This document shows positions 6,832 to 61,556 of a stretch of 64,000 nt of DNA, in pieces; within the stretch, counting starts at the first letter, position 1, and each line of letters starts with the position of its first letter. Origin of the DNA: a virus (lineage: Duplodnaviria > Caudoviricetes); the IMG/VR virus record IMGVR_UViG_3300020576_006644, positions 48,624 through 112,623 of that record; one strand, written 5' to 3'. The position numbers were made by a program, and so were the translations under genes. The notes under the pieces were generated by a model. That model was not told where the DNA came from. It worked only from the letters and a program-made list of their open reading frames with translations, and made no database searches.

Positions 6832-6853
6832 GCAAGCCGGGACGTTTGTTCAG
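6832..6853 (-). promoter_or_regulatory. LexA-box-like operator fused to -35
   Basis: GCAAGC-CGGGAC-GTTT-GTTCAG. Confidence 0.6.
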
Positions 6854-10813: not shown

Positions 10814-10835
10814 GCAATACTGGACGTTCGGTCAG
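10814..10835 (-). promoter_or_regulatory. LexA-box-like operator fused to -35
   Basis: GCAATA-CTGGAC-GTTC-GGTCAG. Confidence 0.65.
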
Positions 10836-13027: not shown

Positions 13028-14773
13028 TTAGTTAAAGTAGAACGGTAGACCCTGCTGTAACCACTTGATAGTGACCTCGTCGGCTTGCTCTCCTTCGCGC
13101 ATCGCGTCGAATGACACCTTGCAGCGGCCAAAACCCCCGGCTTCCTTCATCCCCTCCTCCATCGCGCGGCAGACCTTTTCGACCAGGGCGAAATTCGTCT
13201 TCTTCTGCCCGATGCGCTTGATGGCGAAACCGTCGGAGAGATCGAAATAGAGCCGCAGCTTTCCAGCGCACTTGTCCCGCAGGAAGTCCTGACCGGCCAC
13301 GATACCGGCACCCTCGATGTGGTCCAGGGCGAGGTAGATCGCCTTGCGCGCCTTCTTCTCCGCGGTCTGAAGGGTGTCCTGGGGATCGATGACGACGCGC
13401 AGCTCAGTGCCGTTGGCCGCCGCTACCTTGCCGCGGGCGATCAGCTTCCGGGCGAGGCCGCCGTTGCCGTCCGCGCCGAACAGCGCCACCGGGATGTCAG
13501 CGATCGGGTGCGCGAGGACCTGCTCAACGAAGCCGGCAACTTGCCGCTTGGTGTTGCCGACCGGGTACTCTAGCGGCGCCGCCGGGTAGGGACTCGGCTT
13601 GGCTCCGCCGAGCAGCGGTGTCAGTGTTTTTTTGACCAGCTTGCGGGCCGCCGGGAGCATCGTCGGCTGCTTGAGCTGCGTGGCCACCGGCACACCAGCA
13701 GCGGCCAGGGCCTCGCTGGCGATCATCATGTAGGGGTCGAGGCCGCGGGCGGCCCAGCCTTGCAGCAGATCCCGAGCCCGCGGCGCGTCGGCGATCATGG
13801 CGGCGTTGTGAAGATTGCAGGCCACCATGTCCAGCTCCACCGCGTCGGGGAGCACCATGTGGCGGTAGCGCGCTTTGATGTTTCCCGGGGAGCTGAGGGC
13901 ACCGACACGGGTGGACTCGCTGTCCGGCCTGCCGCCGACCAGGGACCGCCCGACCGCGGCGACCTTGGCGATGGTGGCGGCACTCTTGAGGTCCTTGTCC
14001 GCGAGCGCCTGGGTGATAGCGGCTTTGGCCGGCTCGGCGATCTGCGCCTTAAAGGAGGGGAGTGGGCGGTACGCCTGCATACGGCGCTTGCGCACCGGGT
14101 TCCTGCAGGCGGCGATCTGGGCGTCCACCTGATCGAGCAGCTTCTGGACCTTCTCCACTGGGAGCGTCTTTCTCGGCTTGCCGGTGGGGCTGTCGATGCG
14201 GACCGGCTGGTCGATGACCCCGCGCTTGAGCTTCTCCCGAAACAGCTTGATCTCCGCCACCAGCGCCTCGTTCCAGGACAACGCACCAGACCGGCACCAC
14301 CCGTGCTGCCCGAACATCGGCTGCTCATAGTCCTTCACGTCGAGCTTGAGCCCGGCCACCTCTAACTCGCCGGCGAGCTTGGCGAGGGCTGCGGCCGGGC
14401 TCGGCTCACTGAGCAGCGGCGACAGGTAGCTGAGCCCCTGCATTCGCATGTAGCCCTTGTGCCTGCGGCAAGCCGATCGCCCGTAGATCATGTCCTGGAC
14501 GAAGTACAACCTCGCCCTGGCGGCATCGGTAGTGGTTCGCCACGTCTTACCCACCCCGAGAAACAGGAGCGGATAGAAGGTGTGGAGCATCTGCCACAGG
14601 TCTGAGTTGATGAACAGCTTTCGGTGGCGGGTGAATAGTTTCTCTCGCGTGTCGGCGCGCTTCTGCGCGGCCTCGGCGAGGTCTTTTTGACGCTTAGTTC
14701 GGTCTTCTCCAGCGACTACAAAACACACCGCTGGCATTGACCCGTTGACAGCAGGGTCCAGGTTCGAGTACAT
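13028..14773 (-). CDS. Divergent family A polymerase-like protein
   Basis: Ordered motifs ELDMVACN (A), GLDPYMMIA, RKLVKKTLTPLLGG (B), FDLSDGFAI (C); own promoter TTTACA-18-TAGATT at 14799-14828. Confidence 0.5.
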   Translation of the reverse strand: MYSNLDPAVNGSMPAVCFVVAGEDRTKRQKDLAEAAQKRADTREKLFTRHRKLFINSDLWQMLHTFYPLLFLGVGKTWRTTTDAARARLYFVQDMIYGRSACRRHKGYMRMQGLSYLSPLLSEPSPAAALAKLAGELEVAGLKLDVKDYEQPMFGQHGWCRSGALSWNEALVAEIKLFREKLKRGVIDQPVRIDSPTGKPRKTLPVEKVQKLLDQVDAQIAACRNPVRKRRMQAYRPLPSFKAQIAEPAKAAITQALADKDLKSAATIAKVAAVGRSLVGGRPDSESTRVGALSSPGNIKARYRHMVLPDAVELDMVACNLHNAAMIADAPRARDLLQGWAARGLDPYMMIASEALAAAGVPVATQLKQPTMLPAARKLVKKTLTPLLGGAKPSPYPAAPLEYPVGNTKRQVAGFVEQVLAHPIADIPVALFGADGNGGLARKLIARGKVAAANGTELRVVIDPQDTLQTAEKKARKAIYLALDHIEGAGIVAGQDFLRDKCAGKLRLYFDLSDGFAIKRIGQKKTNFALVEKVCRAMEEGMKEAGGFGRCKVSFDAMREGEQADEVTIKWLQQGLPFYFN

Positions 14774-15737: not shown

Positions 15738-16206
15738 GCAATCCTGAACATCCACCCAGCCGAGCCGTTCCCACAGGTACGACCACGGGTACAAAAATCC
15801 TGGTCAAACTAAAATCTCCGACGGAACTACCGGAAAAGAAGTCACACACTAAACGGGGGTGGTGGGTGGTATCTAGGGGGACTAGGGCGGGCAAGGGGCC
15901 GGAGGCGCGGCGGGCAGCCGGCAGGGCGTTTTAAGGGCTGCAGAGCCCGGTGGCCGAGTTTTAGGGTGTCTGGGTCTCCGGTTTTTGTGTCTCGCCTTAC
16001 ATTTTGGACTCCTGTCCCCTGCGGTTTGGGGCTCTAACCACCCTGCCGGCTGCACCCCAACCACCACCTCGTCCCGTTTAGTAGGGTGACTTCTTTTTGG
16101 ATGTCCCCGTCGGTGAGTTTTGCGTGACCACGATCTTTTGTGTGTCTGGGTGGGTTTGTGTCCAATCTGGGTAAGCTGGGATGCTGACCAAACGTCCAGG
16201 ATTGCC
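15738..16206. repeat. Long imperfect inverted repeat in the divergent intergenic region (candidate origin)
   Basis: Arm 15791-15869 matches the reverse complement of 16057-16141 (shared AAAAGAAGTCAC..ACTAAACGGG, CCGACGG, TGGTCA); operator-like sites at 15738-15759 and 16184-16206. Confidence 0.75.
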
Positions 16207-16238: not shown

Positions 16239-17297
16239 ATGAAACCGACCCACTACCAGATCCTGGGGATCGCCAAGACCGCTGCGGCTGAGGAGGTGAA
16301 GGCCGCCTTTCGCAGGCTGGCCCGGCTGAACCACCCCGATCGAAACCCGGGTGACAGGGCAGCCGAGGAGCGGTTCAAGCTGGCCGCTGCAGCCTACGAG
16401 GTGCTGTCCGACCCCGCCAAGCGTCAGCACTACGATCGCTTCGGCACCGCGGCCCCGATCGTCATCCCCAGCCGCAAGGGCCGCTACCTGATAGAGGGCC
16501 AGATCGCCTCCGGGGACCTCGCCGACATCTACAAGGCCAAGCGCGAGGCGGACGGGTGGCAGGTCGTCCTCAAGGTCGCCCGGTCGCCCGCGGTGAACGA
16601 CCTCCTGGCGGCCGAGGCTGCGCGGCTGAAGGACCTGTTCCCGATCGCTGCCTCACCGATGGGGCCCGGGGTCCGCTACCTGCCCAAGTTTTACGACAGC
16701 TTCCAGGTGGATGACGGGACGCGGCGGCAGGTGCTGGTGCTGGACTACCTCGCCGACTTCGCCACCTTCGAGCAGGTTCGGTCGCACTTCCCCGCCGGGG
16801 TGGCCCTGGAGCATGGGGTCTGGATGTTCAACCGCCTGCTGGAGGGCCTCGACTATGCGCACCGCCAGGGGCACGTTCACGGGGCGCTCGTGCCGTCGAA
16901 CGCCATGGTTTGGCTCGACCCCATGGGGCACCTGTGCAAGATCATCGACTGGAGCTACGCCGGCAAGGTCGGCGAGCGCGTCAAGGCGATTTCCCCGAGC
17001 TGGCGGTCGTTTTACCCGCCCGAGGTCCTGGGGAAGCAGCCGGCCACCGCGGCGACCGACATCTATATGGCGGCCAAGCTCGTCGGCTACGTCCTGGGTG
17101 GCACCGAGGCGAGTCACTGGCTCCCGTCGGCCGCCCCCGACTACTTGCGGCGGTTCTTGACGGGCTGCTGTCTGCCGGACCCGCGGCAGCGCCCCCAGGG
17201 CGCCTGGGCCGCCCACGAAGAGTTCCGCGCCTACATGCAGGCGCATTACGGGCCGAAGAAGTTCGTGCCCTTTACCAACCCGGGCTGGGCCCGGTAG
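16239..17297 (+). CDS. J-domain (DnaJ) fused to Ser/Thr kinase-like (pseudokinase) domain
   Basis: HYQILG...HPDRN...AYEVLSD..KR..YD; kinase [24 protein letters not shown]. Confidence 0.85.
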
Positions 17298-18400: not shown

Positions 18401-19771
18401 ATGCTCAGAAAAACTTTGGCACCCCAGGTCGTTCTGCTCTGTGGCCTCGGGTTCGGCGACGAGGGGAAGGGTACGACGGTGGATTTTTTGACCGAGCAGC
18501 TCGGAGCACACACCGTCGTTCGCTATAACGGCGGCCCACAGGCGGCGCACACCGTCGTGGAGAAGGGCCGGCACCACGTCTTTGCGCAGTTCGGCTCAGG
18601 GACGCTGCTGGGTGCACGGACCTACCTCAGCAGCCACATGCTGGTTTGCCCGTTCCGCCTGCAGTCTGAGGCCGCCGCGCTGGACGCGATCGGCATCCGT
18701 CGGTCCCTCGACATGGTGGCGATCGACCGGGCGGCGCCGCTGGTGACGCCGGTGCACAAACTGGCCTGCCAGGTGCGGGAGCTGGCGCGCCAGGACCGGC
18801 ATGGCTCCTGCGGGATGGGCATCTGGGAGACAACGCGGATCGCTCGGCAGAACCCCAAGATCGCCCCGCGGGTTGGGGACTTGGAGGACATCGACCTTCT
18901 CATGGAGAAGATTGAAGCCCTGCGCCTGGAGATGCTGTACGACGTGTGCGACGACGTGGTGGCAGCAAGGGAGACGCCCCGGCACGCCGCAGCTCAGAAG
19001 GTCTATCAGGAACTCGACGACCTGGACCTGCCCGCGCTGCGCCAGCGATACGCGGAGATCGGTAAGGAAACCACCCTTGGAAAGTACGGCCTGGTCGACA
19101 GCGGGTACTTGGGTGATCGTCTCCAGTCTGGCACCACGATCTTCGAAGGGGCACAGGGTGTGTTGCTCGACGAGACGTGGGGATTCCACCCGCACACGAC
19201 GGGCAGCACGACCACCTTCGCTAACGCCGAGGACATCCTGTCGGACCTGGGGTACGGCGGGGAAAAGTACCGGATCGGGGTTCTGCGCAGCTACATGACG
19301 CGGCATGGCCAGGGTCCGATGCCGACGGAGCTGCGCACCCTGGCGTCCGAGGAGGTCCACAACAAGACGACCCCATGGGCAGGGGACTTCAGGCACGGGA
19401 TACTCGATTTGGTCCTCCTCCGCTACGCCATTTCCGTGGTCGGCGGTATCGACTCGCTGGCGCTCACCCACGCGGACCGCTGGTCGAAATACGGGACCGC
19501 CTGCGTGTCGTACTCCCCGGTGTCGCAGCGCTATTTCCAGCTCGGCGGTGCGCTGTTGCGCCGGTCGGAGTGCCCAGACCTCGGTTACCAAGAGGGGCTG
19601 GGTCGTGCGGTCGCGGCTGCCCATCCGGTGTGCAAGTCGGGAGATCTCATCGAGATCGTCGAGGATCAGCTGCAGGTCGATGTTTCCGTCTTGTCGAGCG
19701 GCCCTGGGCGCGGCGACAAGTGCTGGCTGAACAAACGCGCCGGATTGCCGGCCGCGGCTGCCTGCGGGTAA
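18401..19771 (+). CDS. Adenylosuccinate synthetase-like (PurA family) enzyme, atypical substrate loop
   Basis: GFGDEGKG, VRYNGGPQAAHT, FEGAQG.LLD, YMTRHG.GP.PTE, LTH.D. Confidence 0.9.
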   Translation: MLRKTLAPQVVLLCGLGFGDEGKGTTVDFLTEQLGAHTVVRYNGGPQAAHTVVEKGRHHVFAQFGSGTLLGARTYLSSHMLVCPFRLQSEAAALDAIGIRRSLDMVAIDRAAPLVTPVHKLACQVRELARQDRHGSCGMGIWETTRIARQNPKIAPRVGDLEDIDLLMEKIEALRLEMLYDVCDDVVAARETPRHAAAQKVYQELDDLDLPALRQRYAEIGKETTLGKYGLVDSGYLGDRLQSGTTIFEGAQGVLLDETWGFHPHTTGSTTTFANAEDILSDLGYGGEKYRIGVLRSYMTRHGQGPMPTELRTLASEEVHNKTTPWAGDFRHGILDLVLLRYAISVVGGIDSLALTHADRWSKYGTACVSYSPVSQRYFQLGGALLRRSECPDLGYQEGLGRAVAAAHPVCKSGDLIEIVEDQLQVDVSVLSSGPGRGDKCWLNKRAGLPAAAACG

Positions 19772-22042: not shown

Positions 22043-22511
22043 TTTCCCTGGAAATGGCTACCGGCCGGCTGTCCCCGCGCACCCTGACCAAGACCGGCTG
22101 CCCCCACCTGAAGGGGTAGAGCACCGAGTCGTTGAGCAGGTGGACGAGGCACAGCCCCTCCTTTAGCTCCCCGGTGGCCCAGATCGACTCGGTGTTTCCG
22201 TCCCAGTCGCGGAGAGCTACCTTGAACTCCCCGTGCTGCGCCCGGAGGGTGTCGATGAACGCCTTGTCGGGGTGCAGCGGCGCGCGGATCGAGAAGGGCG
22301 GCGGGTCGTCCTCGGGTTTCCACGATGATCCTGGCGAGGGGACCATCCGGCGGCGCTCTTTGAACAGCGGCGGCAGCTTCTCCTTGTGTTGGTCGCAGTA
22401 GTAGGCGTCCCCGGCGTAGTCTTTGTTGGAGATGTGTAGGTAAGGGTCGACCAGCACCACGCGGGTGGTCGCGGGGTCAGGACATCCGATCTCTGCACAT
22501 TGGGTCTTCAT
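22026..22511 (-). CDS. Hypothetical protein
   Basis: ATGA-coupled to the transporter gene. Confidence 0.55.
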   Translation of the reverse strand: MKTQCAEIGCPDPATTRVVLVDPYLHISNKDYAGDAYYCDQHKEKLPPLFKERRRMVPSPGSSWKPEDDPPPFSIRAPLHPDKAFIDTLRAQHGEFKVALRDWDGNTESIWATGELKEGLCLVHLLNDSVLYPFRWGQPVLVRVRGDSRPVAISRENGDRA

Positions 22512-23896
22512 GCCGCCCTCTTCATCTTGGGGACCAGCCGCAGCTTGGCGATCTGCTTGCCGGCCGCCTCCCACCGCTGCACGGCCTCCAGCTCCTTGGG
22601 TGGCTGCCCCGAGCCGACGAGCCTGGACAGCGGGCGCCACAGGAGCGCCACCAGCGCGGCGCCGGAGAGGCCTACCCCGGCCAGCACGGCGAAGTAGCCC
22701 GAGTGCGACAGCGCCGGCCACGCCACCCGGCCGATCTGCCCGGAGACGAAGCCGCCGACCGAGCTCGAAAGTAGCCACACGCCGAGCAGGAACCCACGCA
22801 GCCGCTGCGGGGCGAGCCGCGCCACCAGCGCCGTTCCGATGGGGCTCACGAGCAGCTCTCCGATGGTGATGAGCAGGTAGAAGCCGAGGAGCCACGCGAT
22901 GCTGACGCCCTTGGCGCTGCCGGCCGCCCCGACCCGCAGGAGCGCCGCCGCCGCCGCGGACAGCAGCAACCCGGCGAGCAGCATGTGGATGGGGCCGATC
23001 GGTGCGCCCTGCCGCCGCCGGTTCAGGGCCTTGACTGCCCACTCGATGACCGGGGTGAGCACCAGGATGCCGATCGGGTTGATGGCGTTCGTCAGCGTCG
23101 CGTACTCGGCTAGCCCGGCGACGCACTCTTTCGCCCAGAGCGTCAGCGACCCGCCGTCGGCGAGGTATACCGCCCAGAAGAGAGACGCCACCACGGAGAC
23201 CGCCACGATCGCGGCCACGCGCCGCCCGGTGTCCGCTGGGTACGAGCCACGGTTCTCGCTGGTGGCGTCGGTGTCGAGTGGCTGGTCGAGGGCCTGGGCG
23301 AGAGGGGAGCGGTTGTCGACGAGGTGCCGGCGGAAGGTCCAGAAGGTGGCAAGGCCGATGCAGTGCCCGACAGCCGCCGACCCGAAGGCGAAGCCCCACC
23401 CGAGCCGGGTGACCATGACGGTCCCGAGGAGCGGCGCCACCATGGCCCCCAGGTTCACCGCCAGGTAGTAGCGGCTGAAGGCCTGCTCGTGCCGCGGGTC
23501 GCCCTCCTTATAGAGGGCGGAGAGCAGCGACTGCATGTTCGGCTTGAAAAGCCCATTGCCGACGACGATGAACCCCATCGCTAGGATGAGCGCTGTCCGT
23601 GACTCCACCGTCATGATGAGGTGGCCGGCGGCGATGACGCACCCGCCTATGAGCACGGCCCGCTTGAGCCCGAGCACCCGGTCGGCCAGCAGCCCGCCAA
23701 AGGGCGGCGTGAGGTAGACAAACCCCTGGAATGTGCCGAACATCTCCAGCGCCTGCGCGTCCGTCATCCCGAGGCGCTTGGTCATGTAGACAACGAGCAG
23801 CGCCCGCAGCAGGTAGTAGCCGAACCGTTCCCACAGCTCGGTAAAAAATAGGACGAGGAAACCTGGAGGGTGACGGTTTGGCAGCTGCTGCGGCAT
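22508..23896 (-). CDS. Proton-dependent oligopeptide transporter (POT/PTR2, MFS)
   Basis: ELWERFGYY (ExxER), GGLLADRVLG, GNGLFKPN, YYLAVNLG, GELLVSPIG; many TM segments. Confidence 0.93.
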   Translation of the reverse strand: MPQQLPNRHPPGFLVLFFTELWERFGYYLLRALLVVYMTKRLGMTDAQALEMFGTFQGFVYLTPPFGGLLADRVLGLKRAVLIGGCVIAAGHLIMTVESRTALILAMGFIVVGNGLFKPNMQSLLSALYKEGDPRHEQAFSRYYLAVNLGAMVAPLLGTVMVTRLGWGFAFGSAAVGHCIGLATFWTFRRHLVDNRSPLAQALDQPLDTDATSENRGSYPADTGRRVAAIVAVSVVASLFWAVYLADGGSLTLWAKECVAGLAEYATLTNAINPIGILVLTPVIEWAVKALNRRRQGAPIGPIHMLLAGLLLSAAAAALLRVGAAGSAKGVSIAWLLGFYLLITIGELLVSPIGTALVARLAPQRLRGFLLGVWLLSSSVGGFVSGQIGRVAWPALSHSGYFAVLAGVGLSGAALVALLWRPLSRLVGSGQPPKELEAVQRWEAAGKQIAKLRLVPKMKRAA

Positions 23897-23983
23897 GTTG
23901 GGCTCCTTTTGGGTGATCGCTTCCTCAAGGGTTTGTTGACGATCACAAGCACAACACGGGTGCTGCCGAGCTGGCAATGCTGA

Positions 23984-24262
23984 ATGTGGGAGCAGCGCTT
24001 GACGCACGTTCAGTATTGCGGCGAGGGCGGAGATCTGGGCGAATGGTGGGAAAGGAGAAATTGTATGGAAGAGGAACTTGTAAAATTACGCGCGTGGGCG
24101 TCACAAGCGGCACCGATTATTGAAGCGCTAAGGGAAGTTGAAGAATTGCGAAGGGCTTGGAAACAAGCCCCTGACCATGAGAAAAGAGAGCGGTTTGCGG
24201 CGCTTATTTTGAAGGAAATATCAATCGTGAGCATCCCGCTTCCACCGAAAGGAACACCATGA
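23984..24262 (+). CDS. Hypothetical protein (start uncertain)
   Basis: AT-richer ORF coupled to next gene. Confidence 0.45.
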   Translation: MWEQRLTHVQYCGEGGDLGEWWERRNCMEEELVKLRAWASQAAPIIEALREVEELRRAWKQAPDHEKRERFAALILKEISIVSIPLPPKGTP

Positions 24263-24900: not shown

Positions 24901-26396
24901 ATCTCCCCGATCCCCACGATCTCCGCTCGCATCCCCTTCTCTTCGTAAGCCCTCCTCCTCGCCTCCGCGTGTCGGCGCAGCCACTGCCCCGGCAGCGTGA
25001 GGCTGCGCCGCTTGGCCGCCTCCGCCTTCGAGTCCTCGTCGGCGAAGTCGAATATCGTCACCGACTCCTTCTTCCCCATCTCCGCGCAGCGCCGGCAGTT
25101 CTCGGTGCGGCAGATGCGCCCCCCGCGCCCCCCGCGCTGGATGGCCTCGATGGGGCTGCGCCCAGAGGCAGCGTTTATGCACCAGTAGGCGTGGATGATG
25201 TCGGTGTTCTGCTTGAAGATCTTTGAGCAGATGATGTTGTCGATCTCCCCGCGCTCGAAGCGCTCAATGAGGTCCTTGCGTGCCTCCGAGCTGTCATCCC
25301 CGAAGACGAAGGCGGACTTTATCCCGACGTGTTCGGCGATCTTGGCGAGGTAGCGCCCGTGGTCGATGTCGCGGACGAAGGTGAGGATGCCCGTCTTCTT
25401 GCGGCGCCAGATCTCGGCGACGAGCGCGTTCCGAGCCTTGGACAGCGACACGGCTCGCTGGTAGCCGTCGGAGCTGTAGTGCGGGGTATCCGGCTGGTCG
25501 CAGCGGACCATGACCACCCGGCACTCGGAGATGATCCCCTGCGACTCCAGCTCCGCTCGCGGCACCCGGTAGACGATCGGTCCGAACTGCGCTCGAACCG
25601 CCGCGTCCCGGTTGTCGCTGCGCCCCCCGACGGTGGCGGATAGCCCGATGCGGACGACGCAGCGGGGCATCGCCCGCAGGATGCGCTGGCTGCGCGGCGA
25701 GCCGCTCATCTGCACCTCGTCGTACAGCACCCAGCCGACCTGCCCGAGGAGCTCTAGAGCCTTTGGCGACCACCTGTCCCCGTCAAACTGTTGGTCGATG
25801 GTGGCGGGGCTGGCGACCGTGATTCGCCGGTCCCCTTGCCACAGCCCGTCACCGATGAGGCCAGGATCTTCCCCGCTGCGCAGCGCGATGCGGCCGGGCT
25901 TTGGTGATTTTGTGCGCCCATCACCGTCGAGTATTGCGCGGGAGTCGTATTTTGGCAGCGGGTCGCCGAGTTGGTGGACGCCGCCGATGTCGTCGCAGAG
26001 GACCAGCCCGCGGCCGAGCAGCGACATGGCCAGGGCCGCGATGATCTCACCCTTGCCGCCGGCGGTGGGCACGTCGATGCAGCCGACGACAGCTCGCAGC
26101 GCTGCCTCGACGGCCTCGCGCTGGTGGGGGAGCAGCCAGGCGAGCGGCAGTTGCCGCCGCCCAGGGAGGGTGCGGAAGTCGTTTCTGGCAGCGCCGACCC
26201 CACGCGAGCGCAGCGCCGACTCAGCCTCCTGCAGCAGCCCGATCGGGAAGCTGCGGGTCATGGGGTCGTACAGGCACATTCGCTCGGGCCGCCCGCGGCG
26301 CTTGCCGAGGTCGTAGGTCAGCTCCTCGTGCAGCGCCTGCAGCTCTTCGGGACTGCCGACGGCGCGGACGATCGCGGGGTGGACCTGGAGAATCAC
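24897..26396 (-). CDS. Superfamily 2 (DExH/UvsW-like) helicase
   Basis: PTAGGKG, YDEVQ, GLSAT, QRGGRGGR, IFDF.D. Confidence 0.88.
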   Translation of the reverse strand: MILQVHPAIVRAVGSPEELQALHEELTYDLGKRRGRPERMCLYDPMTRSFPIGLLQEAESALRSRGVGAARNDFRTLPGRRQLPLAWLLPHQREAVEAALRAVVGCIDVPTAGGKGEIIAALAMSLLGRGLVLCDDIGGVHQLGDPLPKYDSRAILDGDGRTKSPKPGRIALRSGEDPGLIGDGLWQGDRRITVASPATIDQQFDGDRWSPKALELLGQVGWVLYDEVQMSGSPRSQRILRAMPRCVVRIGLSATVGGRSDNRDAAVRAQFGPIVYRVPRAELESQGIISECRVVMVRCDQPDTPHYSSDGYQRAVSLSKARNALVAEIWRRKKTGILTFVRDIDHGRYLAKIAEHVGIKSAFVFGDDSSEARKDLIERFERGEIDNIICSKIFKQNTDIIHAYWCINAASGRSPIEAIQRGGRGGRICRTENCRRCAEMGKKESVTIFDFADEDSKAEAAKRRSLTLPGQWLRRHAEARRRAYEEKGMRAEIVGIGEI

Positions 26397-26689
26397 AGGC
26401 CCTCAGAGGTGACTGGCGCCGGGCCACGGAGGATGATCTCTTGAACGTAGACCCCGTCTCCCTCGGTGGGTGTCCACATCCATCCGGTCTCGACGTACTT
26501 GCGCACTACCTGATGAAGCAGTGCTACACGGGTTTTTATCGGGAGGTCTACATGTACGACATCGCCAAACCCTTTGAATTTGGCTCGGAGTTGGTCGTCG
26601 ATGTGCTTCTCAAGGGCGGCAATTTTTGCGTCTCGTCTGGCGTGTTCGGCCGCTGCTAGCTCGGCGCGTAGCTGGGTGGGAGTGACCAT
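26393..26689 (-). CDS. Hypothetical protein (resembles 6539-6796)
   Basis: Similar size and KY..xGW motif; follows an SOS-box-like site. Confidence 0.55.
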   Translation of the reverse strand: MVTPTQLRAELAAAEHARRDAKIAALEKHIDDQLRAKFKGFGDVVHVDLPIKTRVALLHQVVRKYVETGWMWTPTEGDGVYVQEIILRGPAPVTSEGL

Positions 26690-26720
26690 GCACCGACGTA
26701 AGCACCATCGGCGGGGGAGG

Positions 26721-26742
26721 GCAAGCCTGAACGTGCGGTCAG
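26721..26742 (-). promoter_or_regulatory. LexA-box-like operator fused to -35
   Basis: GCAAGC-CTGAAC-GTGC-GGTCAG. Confidence 0.65.
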
Positions 26743-27293
26743 GGCAGCGTAGCCTTGAGCCAGTCAAGCACGCGGCTGGCCCGGTGGTAGTGCGGCGAGG
26801 TCGGGTCCTCGTAGTACATGATGATGTCGGCCATCTTCTCGATGTCTTCGCGCGGGAGCGGCGGCACCGCTTTGTCGGTGAGCCGGTAGCCGCAGCTCTT
26901 GTACCGCCCGCCGGCCTTCTCGATGTAGCCGTGGTGGGTGAGGACCTTGATGTGGTCGTTGACCCCGTTGGTAGAGCGGGCACCGAGGGCTGCGCCCAGG
27001 TCGCGCAGGGTCGGGGGTTTGCCGCCGCTCTGCCGCGTGAGCTCGATGATCTTGCGGAGGTAGATGGCGGCCCTCGGCGCCAGATCCGGGTAGGCGGGGT
27101 CAGGACTGACCGAATCCCGTCGCGGGTGCCACGTTTTGGCCGCTTCGGGGACCGGGCACCAGGCGTACAGTGTCTGTGTGGTGACGCCGAGCTGGCGGGC
27201 GGCGGCGCAGTAGTTGCCGTACTTCTTGCGGATCCCCTCGTAGCCGAGCGCTGTCGTCTCGGCCCGCATCGGGTGGTGCTTGTACTTGTTCAT
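26739..27293 (-). CDS. LexA DNA-binding-domain repressor with extra N-terminal HTH, no S24 peptidase
   Basis: PPTLRDLGAALGARSTNGVNDHIKVLTHHGYI; N-terminal AAARQLGVTTQTLYAW. Confidence 0.85.
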   Translation of the reverse strand: MNKYKHHPMRAETTALGYEGIRKKYGNYCAAARQLGVTTQTLYAWCPVPEAAKTWHPRRDSVSPDPAYPDLAPRAAIYLRKIIELTRQSGGKPPTLRDLGAALGARSTNGVNDHIKVLTHHGYIEKAGGRYKSCGYRLTDKAVPPLPREDIEKMADIIMYYEDPTSPHYHRASRVLDWLKATLP

Positions 27294-27325
27294 GCTCGGC
27301 AACATGCCCGCAGCCGCCGCCGGGG

Positions 27326-27353
27326 GCAATCAGGAACGTATGTTCAGGATTGC
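27326..27353. promoter_or_regulatory. Palindromic LexA-box-like operator between divergent lexA-like and RNA ligase genes
   Basis: GCAATC-AGGAAC-GTAT-GTTCAG-GATTGC. Confidence 0.75.
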
Positions 27354-27386
27354 AATCTCAAGCCGGGCCAAGTTTCAATGCGGCGT

Positions 27387-28247
27387 ATGGGATACCTACA
27401 CATTGAAAACTTGTATAAGTCGCAGGACATCTTGCTCTTTCGGGAGTGCTACGCCCTGGAGAAAGTCCACGGCACGAGCGCTCACGTCAAGTGGAGCGAG
27501 GGCTGCGTCCTTAATTTCTTCTCGGGTGGTGAGTCGCACGAGAGGTTCAAGGCCCTCTTCGATCAGAATGATCTGACGAATCGCCTCCGGGCGCTCACGC
27601 ATCCAGACATCACCATCTTTGGTGAGGCATACGGCGGCAAGTGCCAGGGTATGTCCGCGACTTACGGTCCCGAGCTGCGCTTTATCGCCTTTGACGTGAA
27701 GGTTGGCGAGTATTGGCTATCGGTGCCCGATGCGGAGCAGGTCGCTACAGCTCTCGGGCTGGAGTTCGTCCCATACGTCCGCTTACCGACCGACCTCTCC
27801 AACCTAGATTGGTGTCGGGATGCCCCATCGATCCTGGCGGCGAATCGCGGATGTGGGTTAGATAAGAAGAAAGAGGGTGTCGTTCTCCGCCCGCTTGTTG
27901 AGCTGACCAAGAACAACGGCGACCGGATCATCGCCAAGCACAAGCGGGACGAGTTCCGTGAGCGCGCCACACCGCAAAAGGTCATCGACCCGGACAAGCT
28001 GAAGGTTCTCGCCGATGCGGACGCCATCGCCGCCGAGTGGGTGACGGAGATGCGGCTGGCGCACGTCATCGACAAGATCTGCCCCGTACCCGACATTGGA
28101 GCCACCCCCAAAGTAATCGCCGCGATGGTGGAGGACGTGGAGCGCGAGGCGGCGGGCGAGATCGTCGTCAGCAAGGAGGCCCGTGCCGCCATCGGCCGCC
28201 GCACGGCGCAGCTCTTTAAGGCGCGGATCGCCACCATCCTCCGCTAG
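27387..28247 (+). CDS. RNA ligase (Rnl2 family)
   Basis: EKVHGTS (motif I), FGEAYG, FIAFDV, EGVVLR, IAKHK. Confidence 0.88.
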   Translation: MGYLHIENLYKSQDILLFRECYALEKVHGTSAHVKWSEGCVLNFFSGGESHERFKALFDQNDLTNRLRALTHPDITIFGEAYGGKCQGMSATYGPELRFIAFDVKVGEYWLSVPDAEQVATALGLEFVPYVRLPTDLSNLDWCRDAPSILAANRGCGLDKKKEGVVLRPLVELTKNNGDRIIAKHKRDEFRERATPQKVIDPDKLKVLADADAIAAEWVTEMRLAHVIDKICPVPDIGATPKVIAAMVEDVEREAAGEIVVSKEARAAIGRRTAQLFKARIATILR

Positions 28248-35903: not shown

Positions 35904-35933
35904 GCAATCCTAGACGTTCGTTCAGGGTTGACA
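35904..35933. promoter_or_regulatory. LexA-box-like operator flanked by divergent -35 elements
   Basis: GCAATC-CTAGAC-GTTC-GTTCAG-GG-TTGACA. Confidence 0.75.
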
Positions 35934-46214: not shown

Positions 46215-46356
46215 GATCCTAAAGTCCGCAAAGATCAAGGACTTCATCTAGTGTAGCCTGCGCAGATCCACAGTTTTCTGATACGCAACCTCAGTTTCCT
46301 AGAATCACGTCGCTGGTCAAATACCGTGCCAACTTTTACACTCGGAAGTTAGGTAA

Positions 46357-46372
46357 CTGAAACTGCGTTCAG
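46357..46372. promoter_or_regulatory. LexA-box-like operator
   Basis: CTGAAA-CTGC-GTTCAG. Confidence 0.5.
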
Positions 46373-46456
46373 TAGTCTCAGAAAACTGAGGATTAGCCGG
46401 TTCGTAAATGGTTGAACCTTTTGTCTAGCCGTCGGTGAGCTTGTGAAGACGTGTGT

Positions 46457-48142: not shown

Positions 48143-48384
48143 CAGCCGCCAGCATCGAGATCATCAAGTGGACCTACCCGCACCAGATCGGCACGCACAA
48201 TGCCTTGACGATGGCTGCCGGGATAGCCATCGGCCGCGGTAAGCCGGCCGACCCATCTCTGGCGATGACGACCGACGCCACCGGCTTCTCCCTCGCGCTC
48301 GTGTGGGACGACGACGCCGAGATCTGCCTGCGCGTGGACACCTCGACGTGGCAGGGCGCGCTGCGCCTCTTGCTCGCCAGCTGA
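48139..48384 (+). CDS. Hypothetical protein
   Basis: GTGA-coupled. Confidence 0.5.
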   Translation: MTAASIEIIKWTYPHQIGTHNALTMAAGIAIGRGKPADPSLAMTTDATGFSLALVWDDDAEICLRVDTSTWQGALRLLLAS

Positions 48385-48402
48385 ACGCACGTTCCGGGTT
48401 GC
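48381..48402 (+). promoter_or_regulatory. LexA-box-like operator fused to -35
   Basis: CTGAAC-GCAC-GTTCCG-GGTTGC. Confidence 0.65.
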
Positions 48403-52952: not shown

Positions 52953-52974
52953 ACAATCCCGAACATTCGTTCAG
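52953..52974. promoter_or_regulatory. LexA-box-like operator between divergent ACP leader and portal
   Basis: ACAATC-CCGAAC-ATTC-GTTCAG. Confidence 0.65.
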
Positions 52975-61534: not shown

Positions 61535-61556
61535 GCAATCCCGAACGTATGTTCAG
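61535..61556. promoter_or_regulatory. LexA-box-like operator between divergent genes
   Basis: GCAATC-CCGAAC-GTAT-GTTCAG. Confidence 0.7.

Follow-up and report, generated by a model that had tools for sequence, protein, structure and literature searches.

LexA binds DNA as a dimer. To our knowledge, the only truncated phage LexA that has been characterised is gp6 of GIL01, a temperate phage with a Firmicute host. Dispersed-site regulation by phage proteins is known from mycobacteriophage L5, with its gp71 'stoperators', and from the Streptomyces phage phiC31, with its conserved inverted repeats. These are multi-operator repressor systems in which one regulator serves about 20-30 almost identical sites that lie at gene boundaries throughout the genome, in the direction of transcription. 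A further point of reference is MotA of T4, an activator of middle promoters. It is a monomer, it needs AsiA, and its box near -30 replaces the -35 element on promoters with a good -10.

In the Bacillus thuringiensis tectivirus GIL01, the truncated LexA homologue gp6 activates the late promoter P3 (Fornelos et al., 2018, PMC6182141). It acts from a palindrome centred at -43.5, which overlaps the -35 element (PMC6182141). gp6 has little beyond the winged helix and reads a sequence of its own (GaCACAC GTGTGaC) at one site. On the side of the myxobacteria, the SOS box consensus of Myxococcus xanthus LexA is CTRHAMRYBYGTTCAGS, and the regulon of this LexA is very small, as it directly represses five genes (PMC9705874).

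The locus described here belongs to an uncultured phage, IMG/VR record IMGVR_UViG_3300020576_006644. The stretch of DNA that was analysed (64,000 nucleotides, called the window below) is the second half of this 112,623-bp record, which has 65% G+C; positions are those of the window unless given as genome positions. The 'direct terminal repeats' of the record were rejected. They are a 77-bp assembly overlap, as in a circular or circularly permuted genome, and therefore a T5-like long terminal repeat cannot be inferred. Neither a tyrosine integrase nor a serine recombinase was found in the phage, and there is no other sign of a lysogeny module. The phage has only a ParB_N-like protein in this respect, and it could conceivably be a plasmid prophage. 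The sequencing runs in which the sequence is present are from wastewater, river and sludge.

The regulator gene (family member P0001) occupies 26739..27293 on the minus strand, with its stop codon at 26739-26741, and encodes 184 aa. Its ORF starts at the ATG that gives MNKYK. An alternative ATG at 27305 leads to the 188-aa form of the gene callers; promoter geometry favours the MNKYK start. Pfam LexA_DNA_bind (PF01726) matches residues 86-129 (E 3.2e-8; 33.7 bits against a cut-off of 23.7), and a profile of the family aligns residues 71-139 with residues 4-71 of E. coli LexA (PDB 1lea; E 2e-10). The AlphaFold model of the protein (mean pLDDT 80) matches LexA N-terminal domains with Z scores of 10.3 (3k2z) and 10.1 (1leb), at an rmsd of 2.2 A over 70-72 residues, and Foldseek matches it to 3jsp with an rmsd of 2.1 A. 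These Pfam, profile and structure matches delimit a complete LexA N-terminal winged helix at residues 70-144 (26862..27086, minus).

The catalytic part of LexA is missing. Pfam gives no Peptidase_S24 match in the 184-aa protein, and this domain (PF00717) was not found anywhere in the phage. The LexA equivalog model TIGR00498 reaches only 26.9 bits, far under its cut-off of 110.95. An earlier note, made from the DNA letters alone, had described a LexA winged helix-turn-helix (HTH) without an S24 peptidase and proposed an HMM search as the check; the search bears the description out. Because there is no S24 domain, LexA-type RecA*-stimulated self-cleavage should be impossible, and the RecA-insensitivity that the note had proposed can be deduced from this absence. 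With both the S24 domain and the cleavage function missing, the regulator falls outside the LexA family proper. It also lacks the LexA dimerisation domain, which makes classical dominant-negative action via mixed dimers unlikely. On its domain content the protein is best classed with the truncated phage LexA homologues: like gp6, it is a phage-encoded LexA N-terminal winged helix that lacks S24. A phage mimic of LexA is thus no new idea as such: truncated LexA copies are common among phages, although gp6 is the one that has been studied.

Unlike gp6, however, the regulator has additional domains on both sides of its winged helix. The AlphaFold models place a three-helix, HTH-like domain at the N-terminus (residues 10-53, AAARQLGVTTQTLYAW; 27135..27266, minus). 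Its predicted helices span residues 10-25, 28-35 and 39-45 with a pLDDT of about 85, and the last two make up the helix-turn-helix. When folded alone, the domain finds weak matches to the HTHs of Hin, resolvase and homeodomains (Z at most 4.0), and all of the Pfam HTH matches in it are under their cut-offs. The extra N-terminal HTH of the earlier note is thus upheld as far as the three predicted helices go, but not by the Pfam and structure matches. It is plausible that this domain is an HTH.

At the other end, a two-helix hairpin replaces the S24 domain (residues 145-184; 26742..26861, minus). Its helices comprise residues 148-161 and 167-181 in the AlphaFold model, and this 40-residue tail is all that lies beyond the winged helix, in keeping with the short stretch that the note had remarked on. 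The hairpin is also the predicted homodimer interface. The homodimer model scores 0.48, whereas the best of 3 controls scores 0.00; in calibration, 20 of 30 proteins with structures solved as same-chain pairs, and 1 of 23 with single-chain structures, attained the mark for a homodimer. Between runs at least 66% of the contacts agree, with a partner pLDDT of 77 or more. In the model, residues 143-182 make up the interface, which belongs entirely to the C-terminal hairpin.

The winged helix carries the recognition-helix block RSTNGVNDH (residues 106-114; 26952..26978, minus). This is identical to the block of Myxococcus and Corallococcus LexA: 9/9 residues recur in the LexA of Myxococcus sp. CA023 and of Corallococcus llansteffanensis, both of them full-length proteins with S24, although the domain as a whole is only 38% identical to that of Myxococcus LexA. 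A scan for STNGVNDH over one genome per bacterial species was dominated by one phylum: among the best 80 loci, 56 are in named Myxococcota, 10 in unclassified 'Deltaproteobacteria' MAGs and 8 in Hydrogenedentota. The assignment of the block to myxobacterial LexA, which the earlier note had made, is therefore confirmed. An actinobacterial host, hinted at by leaderless promoters and a GAAC-N4-GTTC core, was dropped after this tally. To judge from the sequence, the host is probably a member of the Myxococcota.

What does the protein bind? Upstream of its gene lies a 28-bp palindrome, GCAATCAGGAAC-GTAT-GTTCAGGATTGC (27326-27353, both strands), with 12-nt arms that are complementary at 10 of 12 positions. 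It consists of two back-to-back cassettes with one common 16-bp box (27332-27347). GCAATC on one side (27326-27331) provides the -35-like TTGC of the regulator gene, and GATTGC on the other (27348-27353) provides that of a divergent RNA ligase gene (27387..28247, plus), the ATG of which follows 33 nt past GATTGC. The 28-bp imperfect palindrome on the -35 of the gene's own promoter is as the earlier note had it, and it is conserved upstream of every homologue with DNA. Its 21-nt core is the same in front of the genes of homologues whose proteins share only 50-60% identity. The palindrome is not a chance match.

The cassette has a 22-bp consensus, CTGAAC-RnAC-GTYCRG-GATTGC, which is an SOS-type 16-bp box followed by GA and a TTGC -35-like element. 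There are 30 copies with up to 4 mismatches in the phage, compared with 0-3 in shuffled genomes, and they are distributed across the whole 113 kb, at the starts of genes. TTGC lies 2 bp past the box in all 30. About 18 nt beyond TTGC there is a hexamer that often starts with TA, and the start codon follows GATTGC either after 33 nt (leaderless) or after 46-54 nt (with a Shine-Dalgarno sequence). An initial reading of the motif, as GCAATCC and then a box aimed at TAGGAT promoters, had to be reversed, as every site has a gene on the GATTGC side. In having one regulator and many dispersed sites at gene boundaries, oriented with transcription, this arrangement resembles L5 gp71 and phiC31. The regulators of those temperate phages are known repressors, but they are not of the LexA type. 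The set of sites is also larger than that of gp6, with about 30 in a fixed fusion to a promoter element instead of one.

A second cassette, CTGACCGCACGTTCAG-GCTTGC (26721..26742, minus), overlaps the stop codon of the regulator gene. It is the promoter cassette of the next gene, which encodes 98 aa of unknown function (26396..26689, minus) and has its ATG about 32 nt past the cassette, and it is conserved in relatives. Elsewhere in the window, a cassette with the consensus sequence, CTGAACATACGTTCGG-GATTGC (61535..61556, minus), has a divergent leaderless TAGGAT promoter on its other side, and the cassette at 52953..52974 (minus) has a divergent leaderless TATCCT promoter for a 590-aa gene. 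The cassette of a 318-aa gene (48381..48402, plus) is followed by an ATG at +33. Other cassettes lie at 35904..35925 (minus; 1 mismatch to the search pattern) and 6832..6853 (minus). Further cassettes in the window begin at 10835, 15759, 24013 and 54789 on the minus strand and at 19727, 23998, 30973, 36416 and 39088 on the plus strand. PHROG annotation of 20 regulon genes, intended to separate early from late ones, names only one, a baseplate wedge.

Two genes with cassettes have products that deserve mention in their own right. One encodes a DnaJ domain fused to a Ser/Thr protein kinase (352 aa; 16239-17297, plus). Its cassette (16184..16205, plus) is followed by TAGCGT at the -10 position and by the ATG at +33. 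The other, also preceded by a cassette, encodes a 499-aa homologue of POT/MFS peptide transporters (PTR2, E 4e-42; 22508-24007, minus). Such a transporter is unusual cargo for a phage, and it is also present on the related contig L009. Separately, an element of about 90 nt with a box-like TACTGAACGCAGTTTCAG is repeated at about 46290-46400 of the window (minus) and at 14,590-14,700 of the genome (plus). Perhaps this element is a promoter or regulatory site of another class.

The cassettes sit on two kinds of promoter. When the leaderless ATG is taken as +1, the box of the canonical promoters, those on the GATTGC side, spans -54 to -39 and is centred at about -46.5, a position that is read from sequence and could be off by a few bases. 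With that position, the predicted site would resemble the one that gp6 binds at -43.5 in GIL01, a palindrome at or near the -35 of a phage promoter. The other side of the box is occupied in about 10 divergent regions, where a good -10 hexamer (TAGGAT, TATCCT, TAGGCT) usually lies 10 nt on and an ATG follows 6-9 nt later. Here the box covers about -38 to -23, with its centre at about -30.5, again give or take a few bases. The divergent leaderless genes are mostly large, and one is the baseplate wedge gene. The two sides differ in their -10 elements. TAnnnT stands at the -10 position in 2 of 30 canonical promoters, whereas on the divergent side it occurs within 23 nt at 13 of 30 sites, against a background of 5.7%. 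The divergent promoters are reminiscent of those of T4 MotA, with the box centre in place of the -35 and a good -10. MotA differs in its fold, in being a monomer and in its dependence on AsiA, and no AsiA-like partner was identified in this phage.

How does the cassette relate to the SOS box of the host? When up to 1 mismatch to the M. xanthus consensus is allowed, 11 phage sites qualify (0.15 expected), and with up to 2 there are 32 (3.2 expected); none matches it perfectly. The phage boxes are within the range of Myxococcota lexA operators and are of the same type, including the asymmetry by which the GTTCAG half is strongly conserved. The regulator shares with Myxococcota LexA its DNA-binding fold, its recognition helix and probably its box type, while it lacks the S24 domain, the cleavage-site region and the LexA dimer interface. 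The context of the box differs as well. In host lexA promoters it fills the spacer between a TTGAC -35 and the -10, which is the classical repressing position, whereas the phage box is upstream of the -35 and carries the GATTGC extension. None of 401 sampled Myxococcota genomes yielded the composite cassette at up to 1 mismatch, nor did 5 named ones at up to 2, and it is therefore a feature of the phage and not a host promoter type. The host-type helix and box also set the regulator apart from gp6. In both phages, the truncated protein occurs alongside sites or specificity of host LexA.

The 22-mer CTGAACGGACGTTCGGGATTGC was seen once, without a mismatch, in an unrelated, complete 46.7-kb phage (IMGVR_UViG_3300044842_000216; L100:1666-1687). 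It follows directly on a long glycine/glutamine-rich structural gene, and the ATG for a 69-aa membrane-type protein lies 33 nt downstream. The regulator has no homologue in this phage. Perhaps its cassette works with host factors, or perhaps it could exploit a co-infecting phage.

A protein search (tblastn) with the regulator over 50,697 phage records returned nothing at E 1e-3, GIL01 not being confirmed among those records, and a DNA search of the phage collection gave no match. A first scan of bacterial genomes with the alignment of the whole family found no relative, and a scan of viral contigs found only three distant winged-helix matches, none with boxes. Full-length relatives are confined to metagenomic contigs. 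Wastewater metatranscriptome contigs hold relatives of the region, although such contigs cannot show expression or transcript starts and could reflect carry-over of DNA. Neither the protein family nor LexA-type regulators in myxophages were found described in the literature.

The relatives agree on one point. In every one with readable DNA the arrangement of box, GATTGC, 33 nt and ATG is kept upstream of the gene, down to 34% protein identity, and it is kept even where the gene neighbourhood differs. A related 30-kb contig carries more cassettes. One family member, P0011 (L093:884-1429), has TPYAVVCFF in place of STNGVxDH and a one-residue deletion, yet this protein with its diverged helix still has the same box, with GGTTGT, upstream.

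The regulator gene itself appears to be a mosaic. Its last 44 codons (residues 141-184) are 91-92% identical to those of relatives at the nucleotide level, with few synonymous changes, whereas the N-terminal two thirds are 52-70% identical. Extreme purifying selection on the C-terminal tail was considered and rejected, because this pattern is that of a recombination breakpoint. The sequences place the breakpoint near residue 140, between the winged helix and the hairpin, and indicate that the near-identical tail reflects recombination and not only constraint. Exchange is also visible in the neighbourhood. In relatives (metatranscriptome contigs and loci L005-L009), the RNA ligase gene (27353-28244) is swapped for about 300 other bases exactly from the edge of the palindrome, and the region of the 98-aa gene (26395-26693) is skipped or replaced. 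From these swaps, the cassettes mark the borders of exchangeable gene modules.

Which protein reads the cassettes? The whole phage has one LexA-type domain. No sigma region-2 domain was found in it, and no T7-type RNA polymerase, although the latter is a weak negative because the search lacked a positive control (the control genomes were silent). One sub-threshold Sigma70_r4-like match (genome 35004-35054) was assigned on rescanning to no Pfam or PHROG family. With one LexA-type protein, no sigma region-2 and no T7-like polymerase, the regulator is the best candidate. The homology of its recognition helix and the co-occurrence of protein and boxes likewise suggest that it reads them. Most likely, it is a RecA-insensitive homodimer that binds the boxes and autoregulates, and it is probably the master transcription switch of the phage. 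Our overall explanation, a RecA-insensitive transcription factor made from a captured LexA DNA-binding domain that reads the cassettes genome-wide, is one that we hold with moderate confidence.

In this proposal, the regulator would homodimerise through its C-terminal hairpin, and the two winged helices of the dimer would read CTGAAC-N4-GTYCRG. GATTGC is under stricter conservation than a -35 element would require, and the box half that adjoins it is the more degenerate one. A strict GATTGC next to a degenerate half would fit an extra contact, and the N-terminal HTH may, as a guess, supply it by reading this flank. The protein would autoregulate and set the transcription programme of the phage independently of the RecA/SOS status of the host. 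On the canonical promoters, with a box at about -46.5 and a poor -10, it would recruit RNA polymerase much as gp6 does. The roughly 10 divergent leaderless promoters, on which the box covers -38 to -23, it would block. This combination of gp6-like activation and divergent blocking is favoured because of the rigid spacing of box and -35, the poor canonical as against the good divergent -10s, and the lack of integrases. Whether the sign of regulation really depends on position, with activation from about -46.5 and occlusion from about -30.5, seems to us evenly balanced. If the regulator is an activator, and its own only promoter needs it, then its first expression would need basal transcription or host LexA.

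What if the protein does nothing but repress? A dimer on every box would cover or abut the -35s and shut both cassette promoters, for immunity or shut-off and not as a damage-inducible switch. LexA-family proteins are almost always repressors, and the strongest, doubly flanked site is found at the promoter of the regulator itself, which is the arrangement of classical negative autoregulation. The box overlaps the -35/spacer region of the divergent promoters. Even the strictness of GATTGC, with its -35-like TTGC, beyond the needs of a sigma factor would fit direct occlusion of the -35. Yet the canonical promoters look too weak to need repression, and a repressor that cannot be inactivated, on the promoters of structural genes, needs another mechanism of release. 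The phage lacks integrases of either type and other signs of lysogeny, and gp6, the characterised analogue, is an activator. We take a pure global repressor to be a serious rival, although on balance a rather unlikely one. This is also where the earlier note, with its repressor holding the phage regulon off, stands only in part. The regulon is there, as about 30 promoter-fused boxes, but repression is called into question by gp6 and by boxes at about -46.5 on weak-looking promoters.

Another counter-point to the simple picture is that host LexA, having the identical helix, could be the true or main reader of the boxes. The phage programme would then be wired to the SOS state of the host, with the phage protein as a modulator able to displace or outlast host LexA. 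It could, for example, sustain phage transcription after infection-induced cleavage of LexA, or counteract repression by LexA. In GIL01, host LexA and the truncated LexA do act jointly on one promoter. The match of the phage boxes to the operator range of Myxococcota lexA is also as expected, and the unrelated 46.7-kb phage with a cassette but no regulator, together with P0011, which keeps its box despite a changed helix, leave room for host LexA or the protein of a co-infecting phage as reader. It is harder to reconcile with host LexA that the GATTGC composite is missing from the 401 Myxococcota genomes, that a perfect M. xanthus consensus is missing from the phage sites, and that every relative with DNA keeps both protein and boxes. 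We consider this arrangement unlikely. The main idea of the earlier note turns the protein on the host: its chief role would be to occupy host SOS boxes during infection, so that recA, lexA and other SOS genes are held off after LexA is cleaved, or to compete as a dominant negative. Sharing a helix and a box type with host LexA while lacking the cleavage domain would suit it to this. However, some 30 phage sites, dedicated and bearing an extension specific to phages, argue for a role directed at the phage itself, the five directly repressed genes of M. xanthus LexA leave little to silence (PMC9705874), and mixed dimers would be impossible without an S24 domain. As the chief role, this is very improbable. 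Some silencing of the host SOS response by the regulator is possible. Since its presumed box is of the type read by host LexA, the two proteins should, as a by-product of the genome-wide cassette reading that we favour, interfere with each other at phage boxes and at the SOS boxes of the host.

Compared with the known truncated phage LexAs, what is new here is the added domains, the recognition helix identical to that of the host, and a regulon whose roughly 30 sites are all joined to promoters in one fixed way. The sequence itself shows the probable targets, some 30 sites that are rigidly fused to promoters and conserved across the phage lineage. This provides a working promoter map of an otherwise unannotatable phage. 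It also provides a candidate toolkit of promoters and operators for myxobacteria, in which genetic parts are scarce. Perhaps the picture can be taken one step further. In a myxobacterial phage that does not integrate, most transcription might run through about 30 bidirectional cassettes, with an uncleavable LexA domain as their two-way switch; host LexA would act first, and the phage copy would then take over. This extended scenario is a doubtful one at present. If true, it would amount to a regulatory takeover of the whole genome by means of a repressor taken from the host, with the phage programme freed from the host damage response. In any event, the locus offers a directly testable case of the DNA-binding domain of a host repressor turned genome-wide phage regulator, with possible interference in the host SOS response.
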